NCBI GenBank assembly: GCA_021158185.1
Contig: JAGGVC010000056.1
Location: 714 to 64,713, forward strand
From: a bacterium
GTDB lineage: Bacteria > 4484-113 > JAGGVC01
Direction: 5' to 3'
DNA: 64,000 nucleotides
Numbering within the stretch: position 1 is the first letter of the stretch; each line of letters begins with the position of its first letter. Below the pieces are notes generated by a model. The model saw only the letters and a program-made list of their open reading frames with translations, did no database searches and had not been told where the DNA came from. Position numbers and translations under genes: made by a program. Of this stretch, positions 7,363 through 60,004 are shown piece after piece.

Positions 7363-7461
7363 AAAATGGGCTGAAAAACGATCGATCGCGGGTTTTTCGG
7401 GCAATTATTTGCATTTCGCGCCCCGCGATTACGTATGACCGCAAAAGGACGGCGGTGTGAT

Positions 7462-11923: not shown

Positions 11924-12125
11924 CTTTGGAAACACTCCATAGAAAAATGTAAAGCGCTGATTGCGATTTGAAGGGTGGTGCAAATGAAGGGTTCACGCTG
12001 TCAGGCTTATATTACCCAATTGACTGGAAGATTTACCTTTCAACGGCTGGCTTTCGGGCTTAAATGAGCTGTCCTGACACACAGCACCCATTTTTCAAGA
12101 TCGCAGTCGGCTCTCTCGTTCCCGA

Positions 12126-13283: not shown

Positions 13284-13451
13284 TCTAAGACCATCCCTGG
13301 ACCAAATATCGCATTATTTTTAATGGCAAAGGTCTTACCCGGCTATTGTGAATGAACAAACCCGCTAACCTCTAAATGGAAAAAAGGAACTCCGCTGGCA
13401 AGACCCGCACAGGACCTGGTTAACACTGGGTTACCTGCAAGAAGATATCGG

Positions 13452-13480
13452 AATATACCACCGTGGAGCGGCACTGTCAA
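13452..13480 (-). promoter_or_regulatory. Sigma70-type promoter for the IMPDH-like gene
   Basis: Minus strand reads TTGACA-17 nt-(TGG)TATATT. It would give a ~160-nt 5' UTR before the GTG at 13283. Confidence 0.5.
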
Positions 13481-13527
13481 GAAGGCGATATCGGCGCCAT
13501 AAATTTGGCGCGTGCACATCACCTTTA

Positions 13528-15000: not shown

Positions 15001-15273
15001 TTTTCCCTTACACTCCTTATGCAATTTGGCTGCACACAAAGATTACACACGTAATCACTTACGTAGATTGCACGCGTCTAAAATCAATTACCCTGTTGAA
15101 TCACCATTCCATTCATTTTATTTGGTCTTAACCTGTTGTGCGAGTTGTAACTAGGCAGGGCTTTTCCTTACACCAATGCGAATTGAGGAAATAGTCCGAA
15201 CGAAGAATCACAGTTCGGGCGCGTCGTATAAAGCTGCGCCCGATGTTAATACGCGGTTTGAACCAGTTTCAGG

Positions 15274-17127
15274 CTACTCGGTCTTTCCCGACGAAAACTC
15301 GTCAATGAAAACATCTTCTGCATAAACCCTAAGGTCAATCTCGAAGAGCCTGTTCCAGGGAAATGTGATTTCCGCATCGATTGTCTGTGGAACAACAAAG
15401 CTTCTTCCTCTGTATATTGCGCGGTGTCGGCTCTCGTAGCTGGATCTAACCGGCTTTGCAAGTTCCTTGCATCCCTTTTCAACGAGATCGATCGTGTAGA
15501 GGTTGAAGTTCCACGGATCGCCTCCGTTTTCAGTAACGAGATTCCAAAGCCGTCTCCGCACTATCTGAGGAAACCATCTATCCGTAAGAAGGCTTTCGAA
15601 CTTGAACCGCTCCGCAGCCCACGCCGCAAGCGTAGCCGCCTTTCCTCTGATACCGAACAAACCGCGGTATGCACGACATACTATCTGCGCGAGCGCCTTG
15701 CCGAACGTGTTTCCCGCTGTGTTCCAACTGGAGTAGCCTTGTAGATAGTTTCCGTTGCCCAGCGCAAGCACGGAGTCGAGCATCGGATCACCGCCGTTGG
15801 CCCAGGCGATGTCTGCAACGTGAATATCGGCAAGATCGGCAAGGAGAAGCGGGGACAAGAAAGATATCGGGCAGTCGCCGCCTTCCTCCGGAAGCGGAGA
15901 GGGACGCCCGTCAACGATGTGATCGAGCTGCTCGGATTCGAAATTATTTATGATCAATAGCGGTGTTTTACGCGATGTGATTTCCTTGGGTGTGCTTCCA
16001 AGAATGACCGACGGTTCGGTCGACCAGGATGAAAGATCCGCCTCGATTGGAGAAATGCGAAGATGATCCATAAACCGCGCAAGGTTTTTTCCGACATTGA
16101 TGCATTCATACTTGGCCGTTAGGTTGATTGACTCAGGGAACGACCACCAGAGCCCCAAGGGAAGCCTGCCCTCGATGCGGTCGCGCAAATGGCGTGCAAG
16201 CATAACCATCCCCTGTTCGTCGCATCCGCAGAGCGCGGTCACTTTCTTGCGTGCATTTTCGGGTACATTTTCAAGGAGTTCCTCCGCTTCACCGTTTTGA
16301 GGCCCAGCGGGATCTCCGTCTTCGATTGCGATGCACCACGACGTAGACATGGGGAGAAGCTCGCTGAGAAGCTCCAGATGATTCGATTTGTTCATCTCCC
16401 GTGCAGCCAGGTGTTCCTGCCATGCAGCTTCGAGCATTTCCTGTGTTATTTCTGTTTTAATGTCCTTTGGTTTGGCTTCGTCCTTATCGCTGGGAGGAAC
16501 TTCGGGTGCATCTTCTTTTTTACTCCCGTCTCCTGAATCTTCGGATGCCGCATCCTTATCATCCAGGGCTTCCTGCACTTCAGGGAGGTCTTGGTCGGAC
16601 AGTGTTGAAGTTCCTTTCTTCCACAGTTCCTCGTGGAGAACCAGGTCGGATGTTCTCAGAACTGTTGTGCCGATTCGCGGGATTGATTTCATGCAGTGCA
16701 GCCTGCACCCCGGCCTTTCGCGCAGAAATCTAGCAAGGAAGCCGGCAATCTCACCCGGGGTTTTAATCGGTGCTGTTGATGAACGGCTTTGCACGAGCCC
16801 TCCGTACAACAGTGCATCGAGCGAAACGAGCACGCCCTCAACCTGCTTCGGCATCGAGTCCAGCCAGTCCATCAGCGCTTGCGGATCGCCATGCTTATCG
16901 CGCCAGCCGAGATACTCCAGTGGCGGAACTGCGAGCCGCACACCTGCAATATCCGCAAGCCTGAGTGGATACAGCCAGCTTGAGGGACGCCCGTCGAGCG
17001 GAATGAGCACGATCAAGGGAGAGATCGGATCAGAGAAAATCGCTTCCTCCATCGGATTCGACAGTGCGTCAATGTCCGATTCCGATTCTTGAACGCCAGC
17101 TTCAACAGGTGATACTACCTTTTCCAT
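15274..17127 (-). CDS. DUF4127-like protein with an acidic insertion
   Basis: N-terminal LIVLIPLDGRPSS resembles the DUF4127 PLDxRP signature, which I recall from memory. The Asp/Glu/Lys-rich insert is near residues 190-230. Confidence 0.45.
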   Translation of the reverse strand: MEKVVSPVEAGVQESESDIDALSNPMEEAIFSDPISPLIVLIPLDGRPSSWLYPLRLADIAGVRLAVPPLEYLGWRDKHGDPQALMDWLDSMPKQVEGVLVSLDALLYGGLVQSRSSTAPIKTPGEIAGFLARFLRERPGCRLHCMKSIPRIGTTVLRTSDLVLHEELWKKGTSTLSDQDLPEVQEALDDKDAASEDSGDGSKKEDAPEVPPSDKDEAKPKDIKTEITQEMLEAAWQEHLAAREMNKSNHLELLSELLPMSTSWCIAIEDGDPAGPQNGEAEELLENVPENARKKVTALCGCDEQGMVMLARHLRDRIEGRLPLGLWWSFPESINLTAKYECINVGKNLARFMDHLRISPIEADLSSWSTEPSVILGSTPKEITSRKTPLLIINNFESEQLDHIVDGRPSPLPEEGGDCPISFLSPLLLADLADIHVADIAWANGGDPMLDSVLALGNGNYLQGYSSWNTAGNTFGKALAQIVCRAYRGLFGIRGKAATLAAWAAERFKFESLLTDRWFPQIVRRRLWNLVTENGGDPWNFNLYTIDLVEKGCKELAKPVRSSYESRHRAIYRGRSFVVPQTIDAEITFPWNRLFEIDLRVYAEDVFIDEFSSGKTE

Positions 17128-17359
17128 GATTCAATTTTAGCATCGCCCGCGTTCTTTGTAACCAATATGTTACGCAAAACCGAAGTTTGCGAAAAAAATT
17201 ACGTATATTTTTTCGGCTGGTCGTTGAAGCGCGGACGAGGGTGCAAGATAAAGGAATATGCGCCTTATCAGCTATTCCACACGGCAGGAGCTTCATTGTC
17301 AGCTTGCCTGAACAGGAATTCACCCCTGTTTTCCGCGTTAAGCCGGCAGCAGGATTCGT

Positions 17360-20224
17360 CTACAGGGTTTCACCGAAGTGATACCCGATGAGTGCCGCAT
17401 CCATCTCGTCCACCGTGCCGTCGCCGTTGCAATCGAACCACTGCCTGAACGAGGGATTCGATGACCCGATCCCGAAGTTTTGACGGAGCAAGTCGACATC
17501 GGAATCGTCAACAATGCCATCCCCGTTCGTATCACCGACGAGGTTATAGCAGTCAACTTCTACAACGTCCGATGCGTAGAGACCGCTGGCTGTTACAGCG
17601 CGAACCTCCAGTAGCAGACGCTGGTTATTGAAATCTCCGGTATATACGTGTGCAGTATAAGGCGGATTGGAGGATTTGCTCTTGAGCATTCCGTCTGAAT
17701 AGTAGATATGGTATTCAACGTGGTCGAACTCGCCCGCCGTTTCCACAGTCACAGTCATCTGCTCTTGAACGAGTTCCAGGTTTTCAGGCGTCAGAATCTG
17801 GATTTCGGGAATCGAGCTTACGGGCCCGTCAAACACTACGATGTCGTCAATCCACCATCCACTGCCGTCAATCACGTCACCGTTGTCGGTGCCGGAGTCG
17901 TCGCTTTCGAAGAAAAACAGCACACGGATTACCTGGTCCTTGAATTCGGAAAGAGACAGGCTCTCGCGAACGTCCGTCTGGGTGCCCGTATAGCCTGCAA
18001 GCTCCGTATACGTTTCGCCTTCGTCCGCGGTAACATAAACCCGCGCATAATCCATGTTCTCTTCGATGTCGTACTGATGACTGAACGAGAGCACGGGGCT
18101 CTCGACATCGCTGAGATCGATCCGGCGCGAAACAAGGTAGTCGTTTTCGTTATCGCCGTATATTCCGCCACCGCCGCCAAAATAGAAGCAGACATCGCCC
18201 GATGTATGATATGCGCTCGACTGGCGCCATTTTGCAGGTCCTGATTCTTCCGCTGCAAGCACTTCGGGATCTATTGCGATAGTACGAGTACCGTACATAA
18301 GATCGCTCGATGGATAGTGCGCTTCGACCGGGAAGAACTGGTAGAATCCGTTTTCCGCAGTTTCTGACAGCGGGTAAAGCGCCGACATATTGTCAACGAG
18401 CAGATCCTGTGCATTTTCTTTCTGTTCGCCTTCGCCGTAACCTACTCCGCCCACCGTTACATGATCGTGCAGAATTCCTGTCGTGTCCCATGAATAAACG
18501 AACGGTGCGGAATCGGACGCGAAAACCGTAGCCCCGTCGATGAAAAGCTCGACCCACTCGACCTTTTCATTTACAGCGGGAGCTATCTCTACAATGCCGT
18601 TCGCAATTAGGGGAGGCAGTGTATTCATACTGAACATAAAGCCGCTCACAGAAATATCAACGGTGATTGTTTCGTTACTCGTGCTCTTGCGAATATTGAA
18701 AATGCGAACCTGCGAATCCACACCCTCATAGTCCGTACTCGCGGGATAGCTTTCGAAGCTGAACTCCTTGTCGCCCTGGGGATAAACATCTCCGGAATCA
18801 CCAAAGGAATACATATGATCGAGGCCGTCCAGTCCGTCGGCTTCTTCCAGATCCAGCGCCTTGTGATCCTCGTTATCGTTTACTCCCCAGTCGTCATAAG
18901 GATAATGGTCCGAGTAAACATCTTCATCAATGTGCCAGACAAGAAGGCCCTTGCCGGGGGCATGCCCGGTCTCGGACGTTGCAGTGAGCCAGCGGTTCTC
19001 GATGAGGAAATACTCCTTGTTGTAGATACCGTCTGTCCAGAGAAGGTAAACCTCATTCGGGTTGTCAATATAATTACTCGGATGAATTACGAGGTCATCC
19101 ATATCGCTGGTGATCACATTAGGCTCGATCCAGCCCATGAGCCACTTGTTGTATGCGCCCATGTGCATCGGCGGGTTTACATAATTACCGCCGCTCATCA
19201 GTTCCCAGTAGCCCAGCCCGAAGCTTTCGTTGCCGTCCATGCCGGGACTCGGATCGTGGGAGTCGCCTCCCAAGTCATAATAGTCCGGGATCATGAAGAA
19301 GTGCCCCATCTCGTGGTGCGCCGTGCGGCTTTCGGGTGCAAGATCGTCGTAGCCGAGTATGCCGACCGCTCCGATGCTCTTTCCATCGAGCTTTCCTGCT
19401 GAAACAAACCCATATGTCACGAACGCCCGTAGACTGTAGGGAAGGATAATCGTGATCGAGTCGATATAGCCGTCGCCGTCGCCGTCGAAGCTCGCATAAT
19501 TAACGTCGGGATTCGACGCGTTGAGCGCGTCGGAAACGATCCGCGACAGATTGCTGTTTGAAGTGACGCTGTATGCTCCAGCTTCCGGGTAAACACCGCC
19601 GGTGAGATCAAGCTGACCGTAGCTCATTTCATCATAAAATGCGGTAATAGAAGGACAGGTGTGACCGGCGTTTTCCCCGAACAGTTTTTCGTTTACCGCT
19701 GCGTGTGTTCTCTCCTGCGTATAGCTGGGAGTGCTTACAAGAAGATAGATAGCTTTACATGAGCCGATCGATGCAGGTCTGGGGTGTGCAAGGTATATTT
19801 TGCTCGCATCACGATCTCCAGTTGGATTCGGATCGCTGTTCATGCCATCAATATCATCGCCTACCTGTATGTCGATACCAAGCTCAGGAACCGGCATCCC
19901 TTCGGGTACAATGACGCCCTCGCGAGTGAGAATCGGGCCGATATACGGAAGCTCGAACTTGTCCTTCCATTTCGGGATGAGCACGGGAACGCCTGTCCTA
20001 AGATATTCGCGTACCTGGTCTATATACGGGTCCGTTTCGGTCGCGCTGTCAACTGCGTTTGACGCGGCTGCATCGTCTGCACCCGAATTGATGGAAGCCG
20101 ATTGCTTAATGCTGTTTTCCGAAGGTGATGTGGCGCGGGAACCTGCACCGCACGCGCTGAAAAACGCGATGGCAAGAACGATCAGGACACTGATGAAAAC
20201 AGCCAATGAAGTTTTTTCGGTCAT
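17360..20224 (-). CDS. M6-family (immune inhibitor A-like) metalloprotease lipoprotein with a C-terminal dockerin module
   Basis: Zinc motif HHEMGHFFMIPDYYD. Lipobox AFFSAC after the ATG at 20224 (track start 20419). C-terminal GDTNGDGIVDDSDVDLLRQNFG...CNGDGTVDEMDAALIGYHFG is a duplicated dockerin-type Ca-binding repeat. Confidence 0.75.
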   Translation of the reverse strand: MTEKTSLAVFISVLIVLAIAFFSACGAGSRATSPSENSIKQSASINSGADDAAASNAVDSATETDPYIDQVREYLRTGVPVLIPKWKDKFELPYIGPILTREGVIVPEGMPVPELGIDIQVGDDIDGMNSDPNPTGDRDASKIYLAHPRPASIGSCKAIYLLVSTPSYTQERTHAAVNEKLFGENAGHTCPSITAFYDEMSYGQLDLTGGVYPEAGAYSVTSNSNLSRIVSDALNASNPDVNYASFDGDGDGYIDSITIILPYSLRAFVTYGFVSAGKLDGKSIGAVGILGYDDLAPESRTAHHEMGHFFMIPDYYDLGGDSHDPSPGMDGNESFGLGYWELMSGGNYVNPPMHMGAYNKWLMGWIEPNVITSDMDDLVIHPSNYIDNPNEVYLLWTDGIYNKEYFLIENRWLTATSETGHAPGKGLLVWHIDEDVYSDHYPYDDWGVNDNEDHKALDLEEADGLDGLDHMYSFGDSGDVYPQGDKEFSFESYPASTDYEGVDSQVRIFNIRKSTSNETITVDISVSGFMFSMNTLPPLIANGIVEIAPAVNEKVEWVELFIDGATVFASDSAPFVYSWDTTGILHDHVTVGGVGYGEGEQKENAQDLLVDNMSALYPLSETAENGFYQFFPVEAHYPSSDLMYGTRTIAIDPEVLAAEESGPAKWRQSSAYHTSGDVCFYFGGGGGIYGDNENDYLVSRRIDLSDVESPVLSFSHQYDIEENMDYARVYVTADEGETYTELAGYTGTQTDVRESLSLSEFKDQVIRVLFFFESDDSGTDNGDVIDGSGWWIDDIVVFDGPVSSIPEIQILTPENLELVQEQMTVTVETAGEFDHVEYHIYYSDGMLKSKSSNPPYTAHVYTGDFNNQRLLLEVRAVTASGLYASDVVEVDCYNLVGDTNGDGIVDDSDVDLLRQNFGIGSSNPSFRQWFDCNGDGTVDEMDAALIGYHFGETL

Positions 20225-20503
20225 AAATACTCCGTGCAAAAATACACATGAAACCCGGCACGCGGACAAATGTATGTGCCGAATAAGGCAAAGCCCATTA
20301 TTATACCTTCCATACAGGGATAAATTCTTTATAAGACTCTTGCACACCGATGTTCGGGATGCATGTGAACGCCGTAGCTTTAACATCCACAGACTTTTTT
20401 TCTCACAGTTATCCTGCATGCCAGCTCACAATTGAACATAATGCGTGCTGATATGTGAAAAGATGTTAAAATATATGGCTATATGCAAAAATACGCGAAC
20501 TTA

Positions 20504-41983: not shown

Positions 41984-42454
41984 CTACGGGCCCAAATACG
42001 CATACTTGAGATCGCCGCTTAAGGAGTAAGTAATGTGCGGGTTATCTGATGAATCAAGCGCAATAGATGTAGTATTGCCCACCCATCCCGCGCTGTCCAC
42101 GGTTTCAATTATCCAACCAAGTACCACGAGCGTAAAAGGAAAACTGTCCTCGCCGTAATCATTGGTGACAGTCAGGCTCGCATCGTACGTTCCCGCTGAA
42201 CCGAGCGTAACAGTCGGCGATGCTTCAGTACTCGTATTCGGTGTCGCCCCTCCTCCGAAATCCCAGGCGTAAGTGAACGGCTCGGTGCCTGTAACCGTTG
42301 CACCGAACGTAACTTCAGCTCCTTCAACGCCGCTTTGTGGCTGAGCATCGGTGATATCCGGCGGTTCGGGAAAGTGCGCTTCTAACAGCAAGGGGTTTGT
42401 CATGAGCGATATGAATTGCCTGCATTCATCCGCGCAAAATCCCGCAGGCCGCAT
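41984..42454 (-). pseudogene. Truncated paralog of the PKD/beta-propeller lipoproteins (one PKD domain plus the start of the C-terminal region)
   Basis: GAEVTFGATVTGTEPFTYAWDFGGGATPNTSTEASPTVTLGSAGTYDASLTVTNDYGEDSFPFTL parallels the PKD units of 47134..50325 and 50662..53616. It has no signal peptide or dockerin part and stops early in the propeller-like region. Confidence 0.55.
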
Positions 42455-42475: not shown

Positions 42476-43693
42476 TTATTTGATTACGTTGACCAGGTTG
42501 AAAATCGGCAGATAAAGCCCGACGACGATGATGCCTACAAGACCGCCGATGAAAACGATCATCGCAGGCTCGATCATGCTTGCAAGAGCACGAATTGTGG
42601 AATCGATCTCGCTGTCGTAATAGTCGGACAGCTTGTTAAGGATCTCTTCGAGGTTACCGGCTTCCTCGCCGACGCTTATCAAGTTCGTAACGATAGGCGG
42701 GAAAACCCTTGTGCGCTTCATCGGAGCGTTAAGGCTTTCACCCTCGCGGATGCGGTCGCGGGTGTACAAGATTGCATTTTTGATGACATCGTTCGTTGCA
42801 ACGTTTTTCGAAACCTCAAGAGCCTCGAGGATGGGTACGCCGCTTTCGTTGAGTGTTGCAAACGTGCGGGTGAAGCGCGTGATAGCGACCTTTCGTGCGA
42901 GCGGGCCGAAGAGCGGCAGCCTGAGAATGATCGGGTCGAGAAGCTTGTGCCCCCATTTGCTGTTCCTGAATTTCAGGAAACCGATGATGACAACGGGAAT
43001 TATAAGCAGGTAATACCAGTTCGTCAGAAGCCAGTCGCTGACCTCAAGCAGCTTTCTTGTAAGGAGCGGAAGCTGAGCCTGCCCGCCCGAGAAGTCATTG
43101 TAGAACGCCGCGAATTGCGGAACGATGTAAAGGAGCATAAACAGCGTGATTGCCACCGCGAAGATGGACACGACGATCGGGTAGACCATTGCGCTTTTCA
43201 CTTTGTTTTTCAGCTCGAGCTCTTTTTCATAGAACGCGGCTACTCGCTCAAGAATATTGTCGAGTGCACCACCGATTTCACCGGAGTGGATCATCGAGAC
43301 GAAGAACGTGGAAAACGCTCTCGGATGCTTCTTCATCGCGCTTGTCAGGGTCTCGCCGGATTGGATATCCGTCTTGACTCTGTGGAGGATATCCCGAAAA
43401 CTCTCGTTCTGAGTCTGTTCTTCGATCGTATCGAGCGTTTCGGAAATTGTTAGGCCTGCGTTGAGAAGCAGCGAAAACTGGCGGGAGAAGATCGTCAGCT
43501 CTTTCAGACCAACCTTAAAGAGCTTTTCAAACAGGGAAAAGGGATTGAAAGGACGCTTTCTCTCATGGATTCTCGTTACGAAAAAGCCCTCGTTCCGCAG
43601 GGCGTCGATAATCGCCTTTGGATTATCCGCCTCAACGGTGGAAGTTATCACCTTCCCCTGTGCATCCTTCGCTGAGTAAACAAAGGTCTTCAT
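42476..43693 (-). CDS. pilC: Type IV pilus assembly platform protein PilC (GspF family)
   Basis: Duplicated T2SS-F domains: FSRQFSLLLNAGLTISETL and FTRTFATLNESGVPILEAL. Three TM segments. Confidence 0.9.
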   Translation of the reverse strand: MKTFVYSAKDAQGKVITSTVEADNPKAIIDALRNEGFFVTRIHERKRPFNPFSLFEKLFKVGLKELTIFSRQFSLLLNAGLTISETLDTIEEQTQNESFRDILHRVKTDIQSGETLTSAMKKHPRAFSTFFVSMIHSGEIGGALDNILERVAAFYEKELELKNKVKSAMVYPIVVSIFAVAITLFMLLYIVPQFAAFYNDFSGGQAQLPLLTRKLLEVSDWLLTNWYYLLIIPVVIIGFLKFRNSKWGHKLLDPIILRLPLFGPLARKVAITRFTRTFATLNESGVPILEALEVSKNVATNDVIKNAILYTRDRIREGESLNAPMKRTRVFPPIVTNLISVGEEAGNLEEILNKLSDYYDSEIDSTIRALASMIEPAMIVFIGGLVGIIVVGLYLPIFNLVNVIK

Positions 43694-43873
43694 AATAAAC
43701 CATCTCCTTGATCAGTCTGGCTTTGGAATCGGGCTCCCGATCCACAAAGCCTTCCACGCAAGAACCTAAAGTTGCACCGAATATTAGACCGGAGCCATAT
43801 CAGTTTGTTCCGCCTCGCTACAACCAAAACAGGGCGTAGCATTGACGGTCCGGCTTGCTTGGAGGTTTGCAAT

Positions 43874-45037
43874 CTAAACACCTACACTTGCGCCGTCGAA
43901 GAACGATTCACCATCCTCGGAAGTGCCCTTGCCTGAGGCTCTACGCCTTGGACGTTCTGCTCCCTGTGCAGCGGCAGCACTGATAAGCCTCTGCAGATTC
44001 CCGACGTTTCCTGCATGCGCAAGCGCAGTTTCAAGGGTGATGAGCCTGTCGAGATAGCGGTCACGCAGATTCTGATCCATCGTCTGCATTCCGAGCTTCG
44101 CGTGCGTCATCATCGTTGAGTGAATCTGGAACTCCTTCTTCTCACGAATCAGGTTGCGGATAGCGGGAACGTTGAGCATAACCTCGAATGACGCCACGCG
44201 TCCTCCGCCCTCGGCGAGCGGGAGAAGTTGCTGGGAAAGAATGCACTGAAGCGAGTTTGCCAGCTGTGCTCGGATTTGATCCTGCCCTCCAGTCGGAAAC
44301 ACGTCAACGATACGGTCAATCGTGAGCGGCGCGTTGTTCGTGTGAAGCGTAGCGAAGACGAGGTGGCCAGTCTCGGCAGCTGTAATCGCGGTGCTTATCG
44401 TTTCGAGGTCGCGCATCTCGCCTACGAGAATCACGTCCGGGTCCTGGCGCAGTACCCGTTTCAGCGCACCTGCGAATGAAAGAGTATCACTACCGATTTC
44501 GCGCTGATTCACGTTGCATTTCTTATGCTGGTGCACGTACTCGATGGGGTCTTCCATCGTAACGATGTGGAGGTCCTTCGTTTCATTGATGACGTTGATC
44601 ATCGAGGCAAGCGATGTGCTTTTGCCGCTCCCCGTCGGTCCAGTTACGAGAACCAGTCCGCGGGGCATCATGATGACTTCCTTCATCACTTCAGGAAGAA
44701 GCAGCTCTTCCATCGTCGGAATCTTCTCCGAAATGGCACGCATAACCAGCCCGACCGATTCACGCTGCCAGAACATGTTACAGCGGAACCGTCCGATTCC
44801 TTTCTGACTGTATCCAAAGTCGAGCTCGCGCTCCACCTCGAATTTCTTGCGCTGATCTTCGCGAATCATGCTGAACGCTATGCTCCGCGTGTCTTCAGGC
44901 GTCATCGGCTTGTAGTCCAGCCTGACAAGGTGACCATGAATCCTAAGGGACGCCGGTACTCCCGCTGTGATATGAAGGTCGCTCGCGGAGTGCTCGACCA
45001 GCTGCACCAGAAGATCCAGAATTGTAATATCAGTCAT
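43874..45037 (-). CDS. pilT: Type IV pilus retraction ATPase PilT with a C-terminal extension
   Basis: ASDLHITAGVPASLRIHG; Walker A GPTGSGKST; ILVGEMRDLETI; GHLVFATLHTN. The ATG at 45037 is preceded by GAGGGGAG; the track start is 45112. Confidence 0.9.
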   Translation of the reverse strand: MTDITILDLLVQLVEHSASDLHITAGVPASLRIHGHLVRLDYKPMTPEDTRSIAFSMIREDQRKKFEVERELDFGYSQKGIGRFRCNMFWQRESVGLVMRAISEKIPTMEELLLPEVMKEVIMMPRGLVLVTGPTGSGKSTSLASMINVINETKDLHIVTMEDPIEYVHQHKKCNVNQREIGSDTLSFAGALKRVLRQDPDVILVGEMRDLETISTAITAAETGHLVFATLHTNNAPLTIDRIVDVFPTGGQDQIRAQLANSLQCILSQQLLPLAEGGGRVASFEVMLNVPAIRNLIREKKEFQIHSTMMTHAKLGMQTMDQNLRDRYLDRLITLETALAHAGNVGNLQRLISAAAAQGAERPRRRASGKGTSEDGESFFDGASVGV

Positions 45038-45152
45038 ATACTCCCCTCGCTTGAGCGTATATTGTGCCTTCGGAATGCACCGAAAATCACCGCTCGCTTG
45101 AACATACATCAAGCATGCTCATACCCCAATGCAACAAATGCTGGGGCAAAGA

Positions 45153-46955
45153 TTAAATGTTCGTTTCGACTTCGGCAAGTTTGGGTGCGGCTTCGCGTAG
45201 CTTGCCTGCACGATCCGTGGTTGGCTCGAAACCTTCCTCTCCTGCCTGCTCGTAGTCGGGCCTGGCAACGCGGAGGAGTTCCTCCATACTTGTTTCGCCC
45301 TTCAAAACCTTCTTGATTCCGCTCTCGAACAACGTCTGCATTCCTTCCTGACGGGCGAGATTCTTTATGGCATGGATACCGGTTTCGCGGACAATTAGCT
45401 CGCGCAACTTGTTGGACATACGGAATATCTCGAAGATACCGGCTCTACCCCTGTAGCCGACATGGTTGCAGAATTTGCATCCGCGTGCCTTATAAATGAT
45501 CGGAGCCTTGTCGAGTGTACTGAGATCGTAGGCAGAAGAGATGATTTCAAGTTCCTCTTCACTTGGTTCGTAGCTCTTCTTGCACTGAGGGCAGAGCTTC
45601 CTTGTAAGACGCTGGGCCATTATGCCGCTTACCGTGGCGTTGATCAGATACGGTGGAACTTCCATATTCACAAGTCGCGGAATTGCACCCGGCGCGTCGT
45701 TAGTATGGAGAGTGGAAAACACCAAGTGCCCGGTGAGGGCAGCTTGTACGGCAAGGTCTGCCGTTTCGGGGTCGCGAATCTCGCCGACCATAATGATGTC
45801 GGGGTCCTGACGCATTATTGTTCTCAAACCGGATGCAAAGGTAAGCCCGACCTTTCTGTTCACGTGCACCTGGTTGATCTTCGGAAGCAGGTACTCGACG
45901 GGATCCTCCATCGTAACTACGTTATTAGTCTCGTTGGCGATCTTGTCGAGTGCAGCAACGAGTGTCGTGGATTTGCCGCTACCGGTGGGCCCGGTAACGA
46001 GGATAATCCCGTGCGGCTGCTCTACCATTTCCTCGAAAACGGGCAGTTCATCCTCGTCGAACCCGAGGTCCTGGAGCGTCAGGAGAGCGGAACTCTTGTT
46101 GAGAAGACGCATCACGATCTTCTCACCGAACACCGTCGGCAACGTCGAAAAACGGATATCAATCTCGTTTTCCCTTATTTTTACGCTGATACGGCCGTCC
46201 TGAGGCATCCTGCGCTCGCTCGTATCGAGTCGGGCAAGAATCTTGAGGCGCGCGGTAACGGCAGGAATAGCGTTCCTGGGTACAGTGAGTATCCTCTGGA
46301 GCATGCCGTCAACACGGTAGCGAACCTCCATTTTGTCTTCCTTGGGTTCGAGGTGGATGTCTGATGCCTTGTAGTCTACTGCGCCGTTCAGGATTGTTTC
46401 GACAAGCTTGACGATGGGCGCCTGCTCAACTTCCGAAAGAGTCTGTTTGTCAAGTATAGTATCGTCAATAATGAAGCCCTTGTTGATCTGATCCTGCTTG
46501 AATAATTCGAGGGATTTCTCCGCTTCGTGCGAGACTCCGAAAAGCTTGTCGAAAGCGAACTTGAGCGCGTGTGGGCTCGCAATGCGCGGTGAAACTTCAA
46601 AGCCCGTAGACAGACGGATATCGTCGATCGCGAGAAGGTTGAGCGGATCGACCATAGCAACCAGAAGATTAGAGCCTTCTATCTTGATTGGAAATGCCTG
46701 GTGGCGCTGAATCATATCAGGTGAAATTAGCTTTGCAGCATCAAGGTCAATTTGCGCTTCATAAAGGTCTATCTTTTCAATGCCGAGCTGCTTTGCAAGA
46801 GCATCCATCACCTCTTCTTCGACGGCAAGCTGCATCTCGATGATAACCTCACCGAGTCTCTTGCCCGAATCCTTCTGCTCCTCAAGAGCATCCTGTAGCT
46901 TGTCAAGGGAAAGCACTCCCTCGTCGACAAGCATATCGCCTAATTTTTTTTGCAT
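45153..46955 (-). CDS. pilB: Type IV pilus assembly ATPase PilB (GspE family)
   Basis: N-terminal T2SSE_N-type domain. Walker A GPTGSGKST; IMVGEIRDPETA; tetra-Cys motif CPQC...CKFC. Confidence 0.9.
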   Translation of the reverse strand: MQKKLGDMLVDEGVLSLDKLQDALEEQKDSGKRLGEVIIEMQLAVEEEVMDALAKQLGIEKIDLYEAQIDLDAAKLISPDMIQRHQAFPIKIEGSNLLVAMVDPLNLLAIDDIRLSTGFEVSPRIASPHALKFAFDKLFGVSHEAEKSLELFKQDQINKGFIIDDTILDKQTLSEVEQAPIVKLVETILNGAVDYKASDIHLEPKEDKMEVRYRVDGMLQRILTVPRNAIPAVTARLKILARLDTSERRMPQDGRISVKIRENEIDIRFSTLPTVFGEKIVMRLLNKSSALLTLQDLGFDEDELPVFEEMVEQPHGIILVTGPTGSGKSTTLVAALDKIANETNNVVTMEDPVEYLLPKINQVHVNRKVGLTFASGLRTIMRQDPDIIMVGEIRDPETADLAVQAALTGHLVFSTLHTNDAPGAIPRLVNMEVPPYLINATVSGIMAQRLTRKLCPQCKKSYEPSEEELEIISSAYDLSTLDKAPIIYKARGCKFCNHVGYRGRAGIFEIFRMSNKLRELIVRETGIHAIKNLARQEGMQTLFESGIKKVLKGETSMEELLRVARPDYEQAGEEGFEPTTDRAGKLREAAPKLAEVETNI

Positions 46956-47133: not shown

Positions 47134-50100
47134 ATGATGCGTGGAATCATTTCTTTCATTATCGTACTTGCTACGCTGACATACGTTTTATTCGCCTGTT
47201 CGGGCAGACAAGGGCCGCCAGGCGAACCAGGAGGGCTAACGACGGGGGTCTCTGGAGTCAGTTCTTCCACAGTTGATTCTCTAAAAACCGACATTCAGGA
47301 ATATGTTCCACCCGCGGACATTGATAACGACCTTTTCGATAAGCTTGCCGAAAAGCTCCTAAGCGATTTTACAGCATTCAGCGAAGGCCGTCTGCCTTCT
47401 CAAGGGGGCGGTGAAACGGTTGAGCTCGATGTCGTAATCACGGATAATGAAGATGAAACGTCTACTTACGCGTGGCGGTTCCATCATTCCGGAGATTACG
47501 ATCTTTCGGGAGACGTGGGAGTGCCTGACATTACGCCCATCGCGCAGAATTATCTCAGTTCAACAACAGACGGCGTAAATGACAGGTTTGAATCGTTCAT
47601 TGACGGAGACAGTTCCGGGGAAATCGGTATCGCAGATATTACACCGATTGCGGAAAACTACCTGAGCATCTACCAGGTGTGCGCGGGGTTCTTCTCCGTG
47701 GAACCACAGCCGGATGCAAGTCTGGAAGAATGGCAGAGCGGGGCATCGTCTTTTGTGCAGGCGATGCTTCCACCACCTGATGAAGGCTTCGTACCTCTCA
47801 CCATCAATCTAGATGCGGAAGACGATTATTACGGTCAAGTGAGTTTGACATTTTCCGACAGCCTGCTCCCCGAATCTCCCGGCGAGTACTTCTTCGTTGT
47901 TCGCAGCCTCGCCGATCCACCTGCGTTCATCGCAACTGCTGCATTCAGCGTAGAAAGCACGGGGCCGCCTGTGATAGAAAGCGTGACACCGACTGCGGGA
48001 GCTATCGAGCAGGAAACTACGTTTGAAGTGCATCTGGCATCCGGCGAAGCACCCTTTACGTATGCTTGGGATTTTAACGGAGCGGCGACGCCCGAGACAT
48101 CAGAGGAAGCATCCCCGACCGTTCTTCTCGGCGAAGAAGGTGCATACGTCGTAAGCGTGACAGTGACGAACGAGCTTGGTTCGGATTATTTCGAGAATAT
48201 TTTCGAGATACTGGCCGCACCTGAGATTCTCGGTGTTGAGCCTGCGATTGTCTATACAGGACAGGAAACAACGTTCGTTGCCGATGTGGAGGGGGTGAAA
48301 CCTACGGAATACTCCTGGGATTTCGGCGGCGGTGCAACCCCCGGTACGTCGGATGAAGAAAGCCCGACGGTTACAGTAGGCGCGATAGGTACTTACAGTG
48401 CGAGCTTGTCGGTATCAAACGAATATGGAAGTGATTCGTTCGAATGGTCGCTTGATATTATAAGCCCTGCTCCTGTGATTAACTCGGTTGAACCTACTAA
48501 CGGGTTCGCTGGCGAGTGGATTACTATGACCGCGGATCTTCTCGGCGCGCCGCCGTTCCAGTATGCTTGGATGTTCGATAATGCGGCTGAGCCTTCTATT
48601 TCCAGTCTGGCTTCACCGACAATATTCCTGACAACACCGGGTGTATACGACATGCGATTGACCGTTTCAAACGAGTTCGGAGATTCCGAGTACAACTGGA
48701 GTTTCTGGGTCTACGAAGGTGTACCGCAAATACTGGAGGTTTCTCCTCTCGTTGCACCGAATGGTAGGGAAATAACCTTCTCGGCAACCGTAATAGGCCG
48801 CGAAACGCTCCATTACATGTGGGACTTCGGCGACGGCGCGACGCCCAAGCTGGCCTTCGAAGAAAATCCTACAGTTACAACCAATCCTTCTTCCGGAAAG
48901 TACAGCGGAAGCCTTACCGTGGTAAACGACTTGGGCGAGGACGTCTTTCCCTTCACGCTTAATGTGATAGCTTCTCCGTTCCCGCCCGTGATTGAAAGCG
49001 TAACGCCTACCGAGGGCGATTCCGGCGAGGAGATTACGATGTCTGCAGTTGTGACCGGTACTTTACCCATCTTCTACTCGTGGGATTTCGGAGATGGAGC
49101 GGACCCGAACACATCAACCTCTCTTTCGCCTACTGTAACGCTTCTCGGACCGGGTACTTACGATGCTAGTCTGAACGTATCGAATGATGCCGGTTCCGAT
49201 ACTTATCCATTTACACTTACGGTTCATCCGATTGCCGGGCAGTGGACAACGGAGATTGTCGAATTCGGTGGAGACTTGCCGACTGGCTGGTATGCAAGCC
49301 TCGTGTTCCTTCCCACCGGCGAGCCGATGATCGCATATCAGGAAAAGATGTCCTCCAGCACTGCAGCACTAATGACCACAGTTAAAAGAGATTCTGTATG
49401 GGAAACTGAAATAGTCGACGACGGCAGTGGCGGAATCACAGCAAATGTATTGGACATGGCCCTGGACGGCGACGGCAATCCGGTAATCGCATACCAGTAC
49501 GTAGGAGGAGAGGAGCCGGGATTCTTTTTCGATCTGATGGTAGCCTGGTGGAACGGTGTCTCCTGGGATATCTCCTCAGTCGACAGCGATCCTAGTGGTA
49601 CCCATCAAACCGGACTCTACATCGATATCGACTTCGCTCCGAGCGGAAAGGGGCTTATCGCTCACCTCTACGGCCATGGAGGGCAAGATTACCATACCGA
49701 GCTAAGGTCGGTCATATGGGACGGTTCATCCTGGAATGCAGAAACCGTCATTGGTGATCCGCATGAACCTTTGGACATAGCCGGAATACTAGACGCAAAC
49801 GAAACCCCCGTCTGTGCTGGCAGGGTCTTCGATTTCGATACGGGGGACAAAATGGGGCTCAGGGTATTCTGGTACGACGGCTCAGACTGGGTCGATCATC
49901 AGATCACAACCGATATTGATGATGGGTACCACATTTCGATGGCGCTCGACGGCGAAGGAAATCCATCGCTCTGCTGGTACGACTATAACCTGGGCGACCT
50001 CAAGTACATCCGCTGGACAGGAACTGAATGGGGTGCAGTGGAAACCGTCCGCGGCATGGGCGACGCCGGTACGTACAGTTGCCTTGCATACAGCCCCGAC

Positions 50101-50325
50101 GGAGTTCCTTACATCAGCTATTACTACATCAGTCATAGACGGCTTCAGTTAGCATACAAGCCAGGTTCGATTTGGATCAACAAGGTTATAGACGACGGCG
50201 GAGCGGAGGGACATCCTGTAGGCAAGTTTTCGTCGATTGCTTTCGATCTTGACGGCCTTCCGCATATCGCATACCAGCAGTTCGGCGCAGGGCAGTTCGC
50301 CTTGAAGTACGCAACGCTGCACTAG
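47134..50325 (+). CDS. Large lipoprotein: N-terminal dockerin-like repeats, five PKD-like domains, C-terminal beta-propeller-like repeats
   Basis: GGGAGG SD and lipobox VLFACSG. Dockerin-like DYDLSGDVGVPDITPIAQNYL and DGDSSGEIGIADITPIAENYL. There are five Y.WDFG..A.P units. C-terminal repeats resemble ALDGDGNPVIAYQ. Confidence 0.8.
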   Translation: MMRGIISFIIVLATLTYVLFACSGRQGPPGEPGGLTTGVSGVSSSTVDSLKTDIQEYVPPADIDNDLFDKLAEKLLSDFTAFSEGRLPSQGGGETVELDVVITDNEDETSTYAWRFHHSGDYDLSGDVGVPDITPIAQNYLSSTTDGVNDRFESFIDGDSSGEIGIADITPIAENYLSIYQVCAGFFSVEPQPDASLEEWQSGASSFVQAMLPPPDEGFVPLTINLDAEDDYYGQVSLTFSDSLLPESPGEYFFVVRSLADPPAFIATAAFSVESTGPPVIESVTPTAGAIEQETTFEVHLASGEAPFTYAWDFNGAATPETSEEASPTVLLGEEGAYVVSVTVTNELGSDYFENIFEILAAPEILGVEPAIVYTGQETTFVADVEGVKPTEYSWDFGGGATPGTSDEESPTVTVGAIGTYSASLSVSNEYGSDSFEWSLDIISPAPVINSVEPTNGFAGEWITMTADLLGAPPFQYAWMFDNAAEPSISSLASPTIFLTTPGVYDMRLTVSNEFGDSEYNWSFWVYEGVPQILEVSPLVAPNGREITFSATVIGRETLHYMWDFGDGATPKLAFEENPTVTTNPSSGKYSGSLTVVNDLGEDVFPFTLNVIASPFPPVIESVTPTEGDSGEEITMSAVVTGTLPIFYSWDFGDGADPNTSTSLSPTVTLLGPGTYDASLNVSNDAGSDTYPFTLTVHPIAGQWTTEIVEFGGDLPTGWYASLVFLPTGEPMIAYQEKMSSSTAALMTTVKRDSVWETEIVDDGSGGITANVLDMALDGDGNPVIAYQYVGGEEPGFFFDLMVAWWNGVSWDISSVDSDPSGTHQTGLYIDIDFAPSGKGLIAHLYGHGGQDYHTELRSVIWDGSSWNAETVIGDPHEPLDIAGILDANETPVCAGRVFDFDTGDKMGLRVFWYDGSDWVDHQITTDIDDGYHISMALDGEGNPSLCWYDYNLGDLKYIRWTGTEWGAVETVRGMGDAGTYSCLAYSPDGVPYISYYYISHRRLQLAYKPGSIWINKVIDDGGAEGHPVGKFSSIAFDLDGLPHIAYQQFGAGQFALKYATLH

Positions 50326-50661
50326 TTGGCACAACGGTTCTTGGAGATTGAGCATCGTGGATGATGCTTGTGATGGGCAAATCTAGTCGTGTGCCCGGTC
50401 GCACATCCACGTTTCAAGCTGGCGGGATAAAGTGTCGTGTTGCTTGATCAGCCGTATCACGCGTACGAGCACTTGCTGTGCTGACGCTGGGTAGACCGTA
50501 TTAGAATCATTTTCTGATGTGCGAGCCACGTTGAACCTGTTTTGAGGAAATCAGCGATTTACATATTTTAACGTCTTCTATGCCTAAAATTCGGTGATGA
50601 ACCTCATTATCACGATATAATCTTATGTACTTATAATTTTTTGTTTTCTTTGGTGGTAATC

Positions 50662-53616
50662 ATGAATCTTGAAAGAGCTTTGGTATTTTTTGTTGTTGTC
50701 GCGGTTTTTCTCGCAACCGTGTCCGCTTGCTCGGGCAAGAACGGAACGAGCCGCTTTTCTGGCGATACGCCAGCCGCCGATTCGGCTGTAACATCCGTGA
50801 GTGTCGAAGGCGCAAAAAGTGCGGTAGAGAACTATTCACCGCCAGAGGGTGTCGATCCCGAACTTTTCGCGATGCTCTCCGAGAAGTTCATGAAGGACTA
50901 CGAGGCCATTTCCGAGGGGCGAATGGTTGCCCAGGATGAAACCGCCGAGCCCGATCTAGTTCTTACAACGACCGACAACGGCAACGAGTCGTGGACATAC
51001 GAATGGGAGTATTACAACATCGGCGACTACGACCTCAACGGAGAAGTGGGCGTTCCCGACATTACGCCGATCGCCGTCAATTATCTTCTACCTGTAGAAG
51101 GCATACTTGTACGTATACGCAGCTTCATTGACGGCGATGGCGATGGGGAAATCGGCGTTCCCGATATCACGCCCATTGCGACGAACTATCTGAACATATA
51201 CGAGATATCCGCCGCGTTCTTCGTTGATGCCCCTAGCCTCGAGTGGAGCCTGAGCGAGTGGGATGAAAACGCACTCTATTCGATAAGGACAGGGACGAAC
51301 TGGCAGGAACACGGGATGCAGAAGCTTACGCTCAATAACAATAAAGACTTCTATGGAGTCTACGGAAGGGCCAGCGTTATTTTTGCAAACGCGGTCCTTC
51401 CCCAGGAGCCTGGTGCGTACTATTTTGGCGTCAGGAGCGCTGCCGATCCTCCAAGGTTTGTTTCGACAGGCCGGATCTCCATCGGCCAGTCCGGCGTGCC
51501 GGTTGTGGGCAGCGTTTCCCCGCTTGAGGGATGGGAAGGCGACGAAGCCACGTTCTCCGTTGAAATGATCGAAGGCATTGAGCCGTTCGAGTACAGCTGG
51601 GGCTTCGGAGGAGCTGCCACTCCCAATACGTCAACCGAGGAGAGTCCGACTGTCACGCTTGGTGAACCTGGGACGTACGACGCTGTTCTCACGGTAACCA
51701 ATGATTTCGGCGAGGACGTCTTCGACTTCGAGTTCGAAGTTATTTCCCTTGCGCCCAGCATAAAGGATGTCCAGCCGCAGTCCGGTACGACCAATTCCGA
51801 GGTGACGTTCACTCCTACAATAACTGGAATTTTGCCGATGACTTACGACTGGGACTTCGGCGGCGGAGCCGATCCCGACACATCTACCGACGAAACTCCC
51901 ACAGTTACACTCGTCGCGGACAGTGATGACTACAGCGCGAGTCTTACCGCAACGAACGAGTACGGTACTGACGAGTTCGACTTCACGCTCACCGTGGGCG
52001 GAGAAGCACCGGTAATCACGGAAGTATCGCCGCTTGAAGGCGATATGGATGAAGAGGTGACGTTCTCTGCCACCGTGATCGGCGAGGAGCCGCTTTCCTA
52101 CACCTGGACTTTCGGCGATGCAGCCACTCCTGCAACCTCAACGCAGGCCAGTCCGACGGTTACGCTGGCCAGGTTCGACGGTAAATACGACTGCAACTTG
52201 AGCGTTTCGAATTCTTGGGGAGAAGGAACGTTCGATTTCGAGATTACTGTGAACTACGTGGACCTTCCGCCGCTCGTTCACAGCGTGTCGCCGACTGGCG
52301 GGCCGACCGGCACACCAATTACGATCCAGGCCGTCGTATCCGGCATGGAGCCCATTACATACGCCTGGGATTTCGGAGGCGGCGCCGATCCTGATACATC
52401 CGATCTCCCAAGCCCGACGATCACGCTCGGCGATCCCGGGGAATACAGTGCAAGCCTGTATGTTGAAAACGGTCTCGGTAATGACACTTATGACTTCGCA
52501 TTGAACTCCTATCCCGAGGGAGGCGATTGGGCGTCCGAAATAGTCGATTTCGGCGGCTCGAATGCAACAGGACTCGGAATCAGCCTCGTGTTCCTTCCCA
52601 CCGGTGAGCCGATGATCGCATACAAAGCCAAGGTCTCCTCCTCCAACAGGGTGCTAAAGGTCGCCAAGAAAGTTGGTGAAACCTGGCAGATAGAAGTTGT
52701 CCACGACGGCGATGGCGGATATACGGGTGCGGAGCCCTGTATTACCCTTGATCCATCGGGCAATCCGGTCATCGCATTCCAGTACGAGAACGACGGCGAT
52801 TACAACACTTACAACGATCTTTTAGCCGCCTGGTGGAACGGTTCTTCCTGGGATATTTCGCTTATTGAAGGTGACGGCACAGGGCTTAACCGCTGTGGAT
52901 TCGGCACAGATATCGGGTTCCTTCCTTCCGGCGAGGGCTTTGTCGCACATTTCCGCCATATGGACATGTCAACCCCATCGCAGGTCAGGCAGCTTCTCTG
53001 GAACGGATCGAGCTGGTCGGGACAGACCGTCGTGTCATTGACAGACATCCAAGAGGACGGCATTTACGACACTGGCTCAGTGTTGATCGCAGACGGCAAT
53101 CCGGTAATCACTGCCGCATACTTTATCGGTTCATCGGTCTCCTTCAATTCGTTCTGGTACAACGGATCAGGCTGGAACCAAAGCACTATCGCTTCGATCA
53201 AGCAGGCCTCAAGTATTTCAGCGGCGCTCGACGGCAACGGCAATCCCTGCGTTGCATATTACCATTACGATCCCGACATTTCCGACGGCGATCTCAAGTA
53301 CGTCGCCTGGAACGGATCGTGGGGAGCGTCCGAGCCAGTCTATACCGTAGGTAAAGCAGGCTCGTACTGTTCACTCGCATTCAGCCCAACCGGAAATCCA
53401 TGGATCAGTTTCCTGGACAAGGACAACAGCGAGCTCAGAGTCAGCAATAAAGTGGGCGCTTCCTGGGAGAATGAAGTGGTCGACAGCGGCGGTGGCAGCG
53501 ACTTCAAGGTCGGGAAGTACACTTCGCTCGCGTTCGACAGCGACGGCGTACCGCACATCGCCTACCAACAGTACTCGAGCGGCGACTATGCTCTTAAGTA
53601 CGCAACGCTTTACTAG
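50662..53616 (+). CDS. Paralogous large lipoprotein: dockerin-like repeats, four PKD-like domains, beta-propeller-like C-terminus
   Basis: Same architecture as 47134..50325. Lipobox TVSACSG after the ATG at 50662 (track TTG start 50641). Both proteins end in (F)ALKYATL(H/Y). Confidence 0.8.
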   Translation: MNLERALVFFVVVAVFLATVSACSGKNGTSRFSGDTPAADSAVTSVSVEGAKSAVENYSPPEGVDPELFAMLSEKFMKDYEAISEGRMVAQDETAEPDLVLTTTDNGNESWTYEWEYYNIGDYDLNGEVGVPDITPIAVNYLLPVEGILVRIRSFIDGDGDGEIGVPDITPIATNYLNIYEISAAFFVDAPSLEWSLSEWDENALYSIRTGTNWQEHGMQKLTLNNNKDFYGVYGRASVIFANAVLPQEPGAYYFGVRSAADPPRFVSTGRISIGQSGVPVVGSVSPLEGWEGDEATFSVEMIEGIEPFEYSWGFGGAATPNTSTEESPTVTLGEPGTYDAVLTVTNDFGEDVFDFEFEVISLAPSIKDVQPQSGTTNSEVTFTPTITGILPMTYDWDFGGGADPDTSTDETPTVTLVADSDDYSASLTATNEYGTDEFDFTLTVGGEAPVITEVSPLEGDMDEEVTFSATVIGEEPLSYTWTFGDAATPATSTQASPTVTLARFDGKYDCNLSVSNSWGEGTFDFEITVNYVDLPPLVHSVSPTGGPTGTPITIQAVVSGMEPITYAWDFGGGADPDTSDLPSPTITLGDPGEYSASLYVENGLGNDTYDFALNSYPEGGDWASEIVDFGGSNATGLGISLVFLPTGEPMIAYKAKVSSSNRVLKVAKKVGETWQIEVVHDGDGGYTGAEPCITLDPSGNPVIAFQYENDGDYNTYNDLLAAWWNGSSWDISLIEGDGTGLNRCGFGTDIGFLPSGEGFVAHFRHMDMSTPSQVRQLLWNGSSWSGQTVVSLTDIQEDGIYDTGSVLIADGNPVITAAYFIGSSVSFNSFWYNGSGWNQSTIASIKQASSISAALDGNGNPCVAYYHYDPDISDGDLKYVAWNGSWGASEPVYTVGKAGSYCSLAFSPTGNPWISFLDKDNSELRVSNKVGASWENEVVDSGGGSDFKVGKYTSLAFDSDGVPHIAYQQYSSGDYALKYATLY

Positions 53617-59139: not shown

Positions 59140-59261
59140 GAAAGGCGCATTCATCCATCTCGCTGCCGGTTATCGGACTGCCCCATTCTTACATATGTAA
59201 TAGCGATAGACTCGCTTTTCAAGTGCTCCATCGCACTATACGCCGTCGAGGACGGTTCGCA

Positions 59262-59870
59262 CTACTCAGGGAATGCAGTATCCGGTTTCCACACTTTCCA
59301 GACATTTCCTACAAGTTCGGGACCCGGCTTGAGAGTCGGTTTTCCAGGCGTCCAACCTGACGGCATGACTTCGCCGGTTTCACGAACATGGATGAATGCC
59401 TGCACCTGCCTGAAAAGCTCTGAGACGTTTCTCCCAACTGGAGGCGTAAGGATTTCCATCGCCTGGATTATTCCATCGGGATCAATGAGGAATCTCCCCC
59501 GAATATTTACGCCTTCAAGCTCGTCATAAACTCCGTAGGCACGTCCGATTGCCCCTCCAGAATCGGACAGCATCGGGAAAGGCACACCGCCCTCTACCAT
59601 CTTTGAAAGCTCATCCTCCTGCCACATCTTATGGACAAACTTGGAATCGGTGCTGACTGATAGAACTTCAACACCGAGCTTTTTGAGTTCATCGTATTTC
59701 ACGGCGACCGCCGAGAGTTCGGTCGGTCACACATACGTGAAGTCGCCAGGATAAAAGCAGAGGACAACCCACTTTCCGCTGTAATCCGAAAGCCTGATGT
59801 TCTCAAACCCACCATCAAAGTACGCACCCGCCTCGAAATCCGGTGCGGCATTTCCCACCAAAACACTCAT
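59262..59870 (-). CDS. Peroxiredoxin (AhpC/Prx1 type) with an in-frame TGA (predicted selenocysteine) at the peroxidatic position
   Basis: From the ATG at 59870 (AAGGAG 7 nt upstream) it reads [15 protein letters not shown]...[17 protein letters not shown](59727-59729)[16 protein letters not shown]. This continues in frame into track ORF 59262..59702, giving 202 codons in total. Confidence 0.8.
59700..59729 (-). promoter_or_regulatory. Candidate bacterial SECIS hairpin immediately 3' of the UGA
   Basis: The RNA UGACCGACCGAACUCUCGGCGGUCGCCGUG can fold two ways. One is GACCG(A)CCG/CGG-CGGUC. The other is CGGC-GGUC-GCCG, with a G/U-containing apical loop ~17 nt after the UGA. Confidence 0.35.
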
Positions 59871-60004
59871 CTTTTTTCTCCTTCAATATCAGATTCAGTC
59901 TGATCATCCGGGCAGGCTTTGCGCTGCGGGTAGTGCCCAGCAGGATTTATCAGCCCTGTGAATCGCGTATCCGAACTGAAACAGGCCTTTCTACCTATAA
60001 CCTG

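Follow-up and report, generated by a model that had tools for sequence, protein, structure and literature searches.

The gene considered here lies on the minus strand of a 64-kb stretch of bacterial DNA, all of which was analysed and which is called the window in the following. Reading from the ATG at 59870 to the stop codon at 59262 gives 202 codons with a single internal TGA, and the joined product begins with MSVLVGN and contains the motif GEVMPSGW further on. The ORF can start no earlier than this ATG, because there is an in-frame stop a few codons upstream, and 59870 is the first start codon after that stop. In the ORF list, the gene, which we call prxU, is broken into 59727..59870 (47 residues) and 59262..59702 (146 residues), the latter beginning at the first GTG past the TGA, and the public gene calls for the same DNA are split identically.

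An earlier reading made from the sequence only had proposed that the listed ORF 59262..59702 is a part of a longer gene with an AAGGAG upstream of its ATG. When the sequence and its translation were re-read, the coordinates and sequence strings of that reading were all found to be correct, the AAGGAG was where it had been placed, and the frame from 59870 to 59262 was continuous save for the TGA at codon 48. The observations support one peroxiredoxin gene on the minus strand, split by ORF calling. Its features are collected in Table 1, together with those of some other genes of the window.

Table 1. Window coordinates of the prxU features and of the other genes located by Pfam.
Feature	Position	Strand	Remarks and basis
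prxU coding sequence	59262..59870	-	202 codons including predicted Sec48, then TAG at 59264-59262; sequence, translation, Pfam, NCBIfam
Shine-Dalgarno-like AAGGAG	59878..59883	-	7-nt spacer to the ATG at 59870-59868; read off the sequence
In-frame TGA, codon 48, predicted selenocysteine	59727..59729	-	peroxidatic position (T45-x-x-U48); translation, homologue codons, 4fh8/1qmv alignment
Cys38 codon (TGC)	59757..59759	-	10 residues N-terminal of Sec48; Cys in 111 of 120 homologues
Pro41 codon	59750-59748	-	active-site set; invariant in the family alignment
Thr45 codon	59738-59736	-	active-site set; invariant in the family alignment
Arg124 codon	59499..59501	-	active-site set with Pro41 and Thr45 around Sec48
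Met169 codon	59364..59366	-	at the resolving-Cys (GEVCP) position of typical 2-Cys peroxiredoxins; alignment
Bacterial SECIS hairpin, nt 14-31 (U of UGA = 1)	59699..59716	-	covariation, -8.0 kcal/mol, bSECIS constraints
SECIS apical loop, G21-G22-U23-C24	59709-59706	-	GGUC
Type IV pilus or type II secretion cluster	42476-46955	-	Pfam
T2SSE ATPase with MshEN domain	45153-46955	-	Pfam
PilT-like ATPase	43874-45112	-	Pfam
T2SSF platform protein	42476-43693	-	Pfam
Aconitase X (AcnX)	6097-7362		Pfam
AcnX swivel-domain small subunit, adjoining AcnX	7435-7881		Pfam

Family membership and active site

For the profile searches, Cys was substituted at codon 48. The product matches the NCBIfam model NF040737 (peroxi_PrxU), a family that NCBI names 'thioredoxin-dependent peroxiredoxin', with 374.4 bits against an equivalog cut-off of 270 (E 2.2e-112), residues 3-197 being aligned to profile positions 36-232 of 233. 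The Pfam domain AhpC-TSA is matched with 137 bits (E 3.6e-40), residues 5-137 falling on positions 1-123 of 124, and since this domain crosses the TGA uninterrupted, the joined frame is not a product of chance. There is also a weak match to Pfam 1-cysPrx_C (25.7 bits), while the AhpC model TIGR03137 gives 191 bits, under its cut-off of 272, and the other NCBIfam peroxiredoxin models stay well below theirs. Alignment to the PrxU and AhpC models thus leads to the same type that had been assigned by the sequence-only reading: judged by these profiles, the product is a PrxU-type peroxiredoxin of the short form, which departs from the family in minor residues only.

The closest solved structures are those of typical 2-Cys peroxiredoxins, namely 4fh8 (Ancylostoma AcePrx-1, E 2e-51) and human Prx2 (1qmv, E 1e-48). 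In both alignments, codon 48 falls on the peroxidatic Cys, Met169 on the resolving Cys of GEVCP, and Cys38 on the first Phe of FFYP. The first two of these correspondences are those that had been proposed before, with the TGA at the peroxidatic-Cys position and, in GEVMPSGW, a Met for the usual resolving Cys. Pro41, Thr45 and Arg124, the residues expected around the peroxidatic position of a peroxiredoxin, are invariant in the family alignment. The resolving Cys in a C-terminal GEVCP, which would mark a typical 2-Cys or AhpC enzyme, is replaced by Met169. At this position, the residues found in the 121 aligned rows (120 database hits and the query) are Thr (102), Ala (8), Met (5), Leu (3) and Cys (only 3), where the five Met are those of the query itself and of 4 homologues, the window's own 146-residue ORF (P0027) being counted among the latter.

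The protein shares with the PrxU family the T-x-x-U site, here T45-Y-V-U48, the lack of a canonical resolving Cys, the C-terminal tail LVGxVWKVWKP and, as in most members, a Cys ten residues before the peroxidatic position (Cp-10). It differs in having Met at position 169, where the family usually has Thr. Compared to the clostridial PrxU proteins, it is shorter, with 202 residues, and lacks the N-terminal extension of ca 35 residues, its profile match beginning at position 36 of 233. The C. sticklandii PrxU, for example, has 240 residues with Sec84 (PMC3091704). The long form of this type is also seen in one of the database relatives (P0054) and in four of the fetched loci (L005-L008), but not in the window protein.

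The likeness to the typical 2-Cys Prx1/AhpC enzymes (1qmv, 4fh8 and Salmonella AhpC) comprises the fold family and the set of Pro41, Thr45, the peroxidatic residue 48 and Arg124, with ca 180 residues aligned (E 1e-48 to 2e-51). Unlike them, the window protein has a predicted Sec for the peroxidatic Cys, Met for the Cys of GEVCP and Cys38 for the first Phe of FFYP; it also scores under the TIGR03137 cut-off, and no AhpF gene was found among the ORFs scanned. With the Prx6-type 1-Cys peroxiredoxins, it has in common the absence of a canonical resolving Cys, a presumed recycling by an external thiol and the weak 1-cysPrx_C match. By sequence, however, it is Prx1/AhpC-like, and the NCBIfam models of the 1-Cys type are far below their cut-offs.

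The sequence-only reading had concluded from the missing resolving Cys that catalysis would rest on the single Sec. This has to be modified, as a second Cys-like residue exists: Cys38, which is located at Cp-10 and replaces the first Phe of FFYP, is conserved as Cys in 111 of 120 homologues, in Sec and Cys forms alike, whereas the residue aligned with it in the two closest solved structures is Phe. A C-terminal Cys is somewhat commoner in members without Cys38 (3 of 12, versus 9 of 191 with it), and nine members have neither. These patterns could be taken to mean that Cys38 is the resolving residue of the PrxU enzymes, forming an intramolecular selenenylsulfide with Sec48, but we consider such a role rather unlikely. 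We know of no described peroxiredoxin subfamily that uses a resolving Cys at Cp-10.

In three of the homologous loci, two prxU paralogues lie close together, both with TGA, namely L037 (3581 and 6130), L048 (5140 and 6142) and L058 (166 and 1165), so that the two Sec codons are ca 2.5 kb apart in L037 and ca 1 kb apart in the other two. In L048 and L058, one copy has both Cys38 and the canonical GEVCP resolving Cys, and the other has no Cys38 and carries a Cys in a TCDW motif. A different peculiarity is found in L043, from an uncultured Chloroflexia MAG, where a second in-frame TGA is present at coordinate 6076, at about codon 26 (FKNG*MSDY), a position at which the relatives have Lys or Arg. 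This second TGA may be an assembly error, a sign of a pseudogene or something else.

The hairpin downstream of the UGA

The SECIS of Escherichia coli fdhF, the model for bacteria, is a short hairpin inside the ORF, located just 3' of the UGA, with a GGUC-type loop, an exposed G-U, and the nucleotides U17 and G23. In the PrxU family, counting the U of UGA as nt 1, a hairpin can be formed at a similar location in which nt 13-20 pair with nt 25-32 and nt 21-24 make up the loop. The window version has the pairs U14-A31, C15-G30, C17-G28, G18-C27, G19-C26 and C20-G25 with a U16.U29 mismatch, and its C15-G30 is a flip of the family's usual G-C. Like the fdhF element, it has the GGUC loop and an unpaired U six nucleotides 5' of the loop G, the same spacing as between U17 and G23. 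It differs in that G22-U23 is one nucleotide closer to the UGA, and in a stem of unrelated sequence, set by the codons for ELSAVAVK.

According to the bSECIS model as described in a 2026 review (PMC13188914), the apical loop has 3-9 nt with a G in its first two positions, the upper stem has at least 4 bp, the distance from the UGA to the loop is 16-37 nt, and the free energy is -7.5 kcal/mol or lower. The nt 14-31 hairpin of the window agrees with this on all counts, with its 4-nt loop, a stem in which 4 bp are followed, beyond the U.U mismatch, by 2 more, a distance of 17 nt and a free energy of -8.0 kcal/mol. It lies within 59690-59735, the segment for which a check of the bSECIS type had been suggested earlier.

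To evaluate covariation, the structure nt 13-21/24-32, which has nine pairs, was specified and compared with shuffled and slid controls in 83 aligned homologues. The hairpin was found to have 87% of its cells paired and compensatory changes in 7 of the 9 pairs. Changes on both sides of a pair occur in 66 cells, compared to a shuffled mean of 17.7; none of the 500 shuffles reaches the observed value, and the slid controls are all far lower. Among the covarying pairs, 15:30, 18:27 and 21:24 involve synonymous third positions, and pair 16:29 couples amino acids (Thr with Val, Ala with Ala, Ser with Val). The hairpin sits in strongly conserved coding sequence (ELSAVAVK), and constraint on the protein accounts for a part of its conservation.

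In the loop, G22 and U23 are invariant, and positions 21 and 24 remain complementary. In 87 Sec forms it reads AGUU (61), GGUC (25) or GGUU (1), that is, RGUY in every case, versus 3 of 8 Cys forms. Some of the Cys forms nevertheless retain most of the SECIS stem.

The sequence-only reading had mentioned GC-rich hairpins directly 3' of the UGA. A hairpin is indeed there, but the one that folds best is not the one that is conserved. The minimum-free-energy (MFE) local fold is a hairpin of nt 2-24, which includes the UGA itself and has -15.6 kcal/mol (z-score -3.0), and in the window it is thus more stable than the nt 14-31 hairpin with its -8.0 kcal/mol. As a functional element it was rejected, its pairs covarying no better than shuffles in the 83 homologues. 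What the earlier reader drew is probably this nt 2-24 fold. With a ribosome sitting on the UGA, the nt 2-24 hairpin should not be able to exist; the first 12 nucleotides would be hidden under the paused ribosome, and when nt 1-12 are removed, the nt 14-31 hairpin becomes the MFE structure.

With default settings, RNAalifold gave no consensus structure for the 83-sequence alignment, nor did the plain alifold wrapper, and the nt 14-31 hairpin was recovered only with RIBOSUM scoring or with a lower penalty for incompatible pairs. Rfam returned nothing in the window at gathering thresholds, nor in 59200-59950 at E up to 10. To our knowledge, Rfam does not include a model for SECIS elements that lie within bacterial ORFs, and this null result is the expected one.

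Conservation of codon 48 and alternative explanations

We now turn to the question of whether the TGA is real and maintained. Seven further loci that were fetched from this organism (L001-L004 and L096-L098) carry prxU in identical form, with the TGA. They are located on at least five different contigs and originate from JGI sample 3300016457 and ENA assembly ERZ23499370. In the flanking DNA, the same loci have 4-27 nt differences from the window, and therefore they do not stem from a single assembly that was copied.

Among the 120 closest database proteins, the residue at site 48 is given as 'W' in 86, Cys in 32, Arg in 1 and Ser in 1. For one of the 'W' clusters (four loci) the DNA was inspected and the codon was found to be TGA, which indicates that the 'W' at this site is a gene-caller artefact. 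In a scan of genomes, relatives of the window product are encoded by 582 of the 600 pattern-matched stretches among the matches listed. In the best 80 loci of species-representative genomes, codon 48 is TGA in 79 and TGC in 1; the highest identity to the window product in this set is 79%, and the window's own species is not part of it. The labels of these loci include Syntrophaceae, Zixiibacteriota, Actinomycetota, Chloroflexota, Ignavibacteria, Acidobacteriota, Calditrichota and Bacillota. Sec forms with TGA and Cys forms with TGC or TGT share one alignment column, that is, UGA is paired with Cys at this site.

Sec-containing peroxiredoxins had been described as rare in the sequence-only reading. 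This does not hold in view of the at least 582 relatives among the matches listed and of the TGA in 79 of the best 80 loci, and Zhang et al. 2006 (PMC1794560) had already placed Prx fifth among the selenoprotein families of bacteria when ranked by number. The same study found Sec-Prx in Syntrophus, Syntrophobacter, Geobacter, Anaeromyxobacter, Alkaliphilus, Syntrophomonas and Symbiobacterium. On the evidence of these homologues, the PrxU family is widespread, not rare. As to experiments, the first purification of PrxU, a Sec-peroxiredoxin, was achieved with Eubacterium acidaminophilum (Sohling et al. 2001, PMID 11501765, as cited in PMC13188914), and a Prx with the TxxU motif is named among the experimentally verified prokaryotic selenoproteins in the 2026 review (PMC13188914).

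With 83 homologous gene copies in the 80 loci, pN was calculated to be 0.17 and pN/pS ca 0.20 for codons 5-47, as compared to 0.18 and ca 0.23 for codons 49-160, with synonymous sites being saturated. Purifying selection acts equally on the two halves of the gene.

Taken as a whole, the locus is very probably a single functional PrxU-type peroxiredoxin gene (59870 to 59262, minus strand) with a peroxidatic Sec inserted at UGA 48. Four other explanations were considered. The first is that Sec decoding has recently been lost in this organism, such that the UGA is either read through by near-cognate decoding as Cys or Trp, or a truncated product is re-initiated at the in-frame GTG at 59702. In its favour, no tRNA gene, tRNA-Sec included, was found in the 64-kb window, Pfam scans of essentially all its large ORFs gave no SelA, SelB or SelD, and no sel genes or tRNA were found in the 10 kb beyond its right end. 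On the other hand, the GTG has no evident ribosome-binding site before it and is itself located inside the SECIS stem region, and the 146-residue product would be without Pro41, Thr45 and the peroxidatic residue. Neither the loop nor the stem of the SECIS is disrupted, and there are no substitutions in prxU among the strain-level variants, and we thus consider this scenario highly improbable.

The second explanation, to which we assign a still lower probability, is that a nonsense mutation from TGC or TGT to TGA has turned an ordinary Cys-peroxiredoxin gene into a pseudogene, of which the two ORFs would be decaying remnants. The splitting of prxU by the ORF callers and the lack of visible Sec machinery in the window would fit with this. 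It is difficult to reconcile, however, with the presence of the same TGA in 79 of the best 80 homologous loci from many phyla, with the absence of any other stop or frameshift in prxU, with the equal selection on its two halves, and with a gene that has stayed identical in seven loci on at least five contigs even though their flanks differ. The SECIS has also been retained, with the lineage-specific compensatory pair C15-G30.

In the third explanation, UGA is reassigned to Trp or Gly (codes 4 or 25) and the residue is not Sec. The 'W' given for the homologous codon in 86 of 120 database proteins seems at first to speak for it, but these calls come mostly from contigs of ca 1 kb, which would be consistent with the gene-caller artefact. 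Moreover, 8 of the 33 other window genes that were confidently identified end in TGA, and no gene but prxU has an internal stop, from which it follows that the genetic code is the standard one. A lone TGA situated exactly at the catalytic Cys position and followed by a SECIS leaves this explanation with a negligible probability. Finally, the TGA could stem from a Cys codon that was misread or misassembled, TGC and TGT being only one base away from it. This can practically be dismissed, as the TGA occurs in all seven loci on at least five contigs from two archives (JGI 3300016457 and ENA ERZ23499370), and 79 of the best 80 unrelated genomes also have it at this codon.

The stop usage of the 33 window genes is in itself unusual, with TAG 21, TGA 8 and TAA 4 at 53% G+C. 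This is a strong skew to TAG, of the three stop codons the one that bacteria usually employ least.

Proposed reaction, genomic context and annotation

With prxU read as a selenoprotein gene, the following sequence of events can be envisaged. When the ribosome reaches the UGA, nt 14-31 of the mRNA would fold into the short hairpin, with G22-U23 extruded from the GGUC loop. SelB carrying Sec-tRNA(Sec) would bind this hairpin and deliver Sec, and termination by release factor would be avoided. In the folded enzyme, the selenolate of U48, located in the pocket of Pro41, Thr45 and Arg124, would then attack H2O2 or an organic hydroperoxide to yield a selenenic acid. With Met169 in place of the canonical C-terminal resolving Cys, the oxidised Sec would most likely be reduced directly by a thiol of the thioredoxin or glutaredoxin type, as in the 1-Cys mechanism. 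The alternative would be a selenenylsulfide between Sec48 and the conserved Cys38. For the incorporation of selenium, the binding of SelB and the identity of the reductant, we infer these steps from what is established on Sec decoding in bacteria and on peroxiredoxins.

The neighbours of prxU in the window are genes for a cyclophilin-type PPIase, NusB, a phosphorylase of the PNP/UDP family and hypothetical proteins, and no reductant gene linked to prxU was found in the window. Across the 80 homologous loci, no conserved partner and no sel genes adjoin prxU. What is found there are scattered neighbours related to oxidative stress, namely rubrerythrin (7 members), ferritin (4), desulfoferrodoxin (3), catalase (2) and Fur-family regulators (2). 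These are genes of the oxidative-stress defence of anaerobes, and they count in favour of the PrxU reading.

That a peroxiredoxin can contain Sec and that a SECIS can lie inside an ORF is already established biology, and the gain here is a correction of the annotation. The gene is to be recorded as one selenoprotein of 202 residues, with a transl_except for Sec at codon 48, rather than as separate ORFs of 47 and 146 residues. The call should be reproduced by any pipeline in which the PrxU model is used. The gene also marks this uncultured organism as a likely selenocysteine user.

The same problem affects most of the close database relatives (P0001-P0120), which are stored wrongly, either with a 'W' at the Sec site (mostly those from ca 1-kb contigs) or split at the UGA. 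The split ones appear as fragments of 80-83 and 123-146 residues under the names 'hypothetical protein' or 'redoxin domain-containing protein'. Entries of this kind distort the family alignments as well as metagenomic selenoprotein counts.

Other selenoprotein genes in the window were also looked for, both as pairs of ORFs joined by a TGA and as a TGA followed by a hairpin with a GU loop. All candidates were rejected, being antisense, out of frame or overlapping with real genes. For the 60 codons that precede the pilT-like gene, no Pfam match was obtained.

Some further observations concern the rest of the window. Judged by its GuaA, which has at most about 62% identity to any named protein, the organism has no close relative with a name. 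Several proteins of very large size and secreted appearance, carrying PKD, Ig-like, dockerin and (faint) cohesin domains, are encoded at 17360-20419, 41984-42454 and 47134-53616, and also at 11229-19948 of locus L096, which hints at a cellulosome-like surface system.
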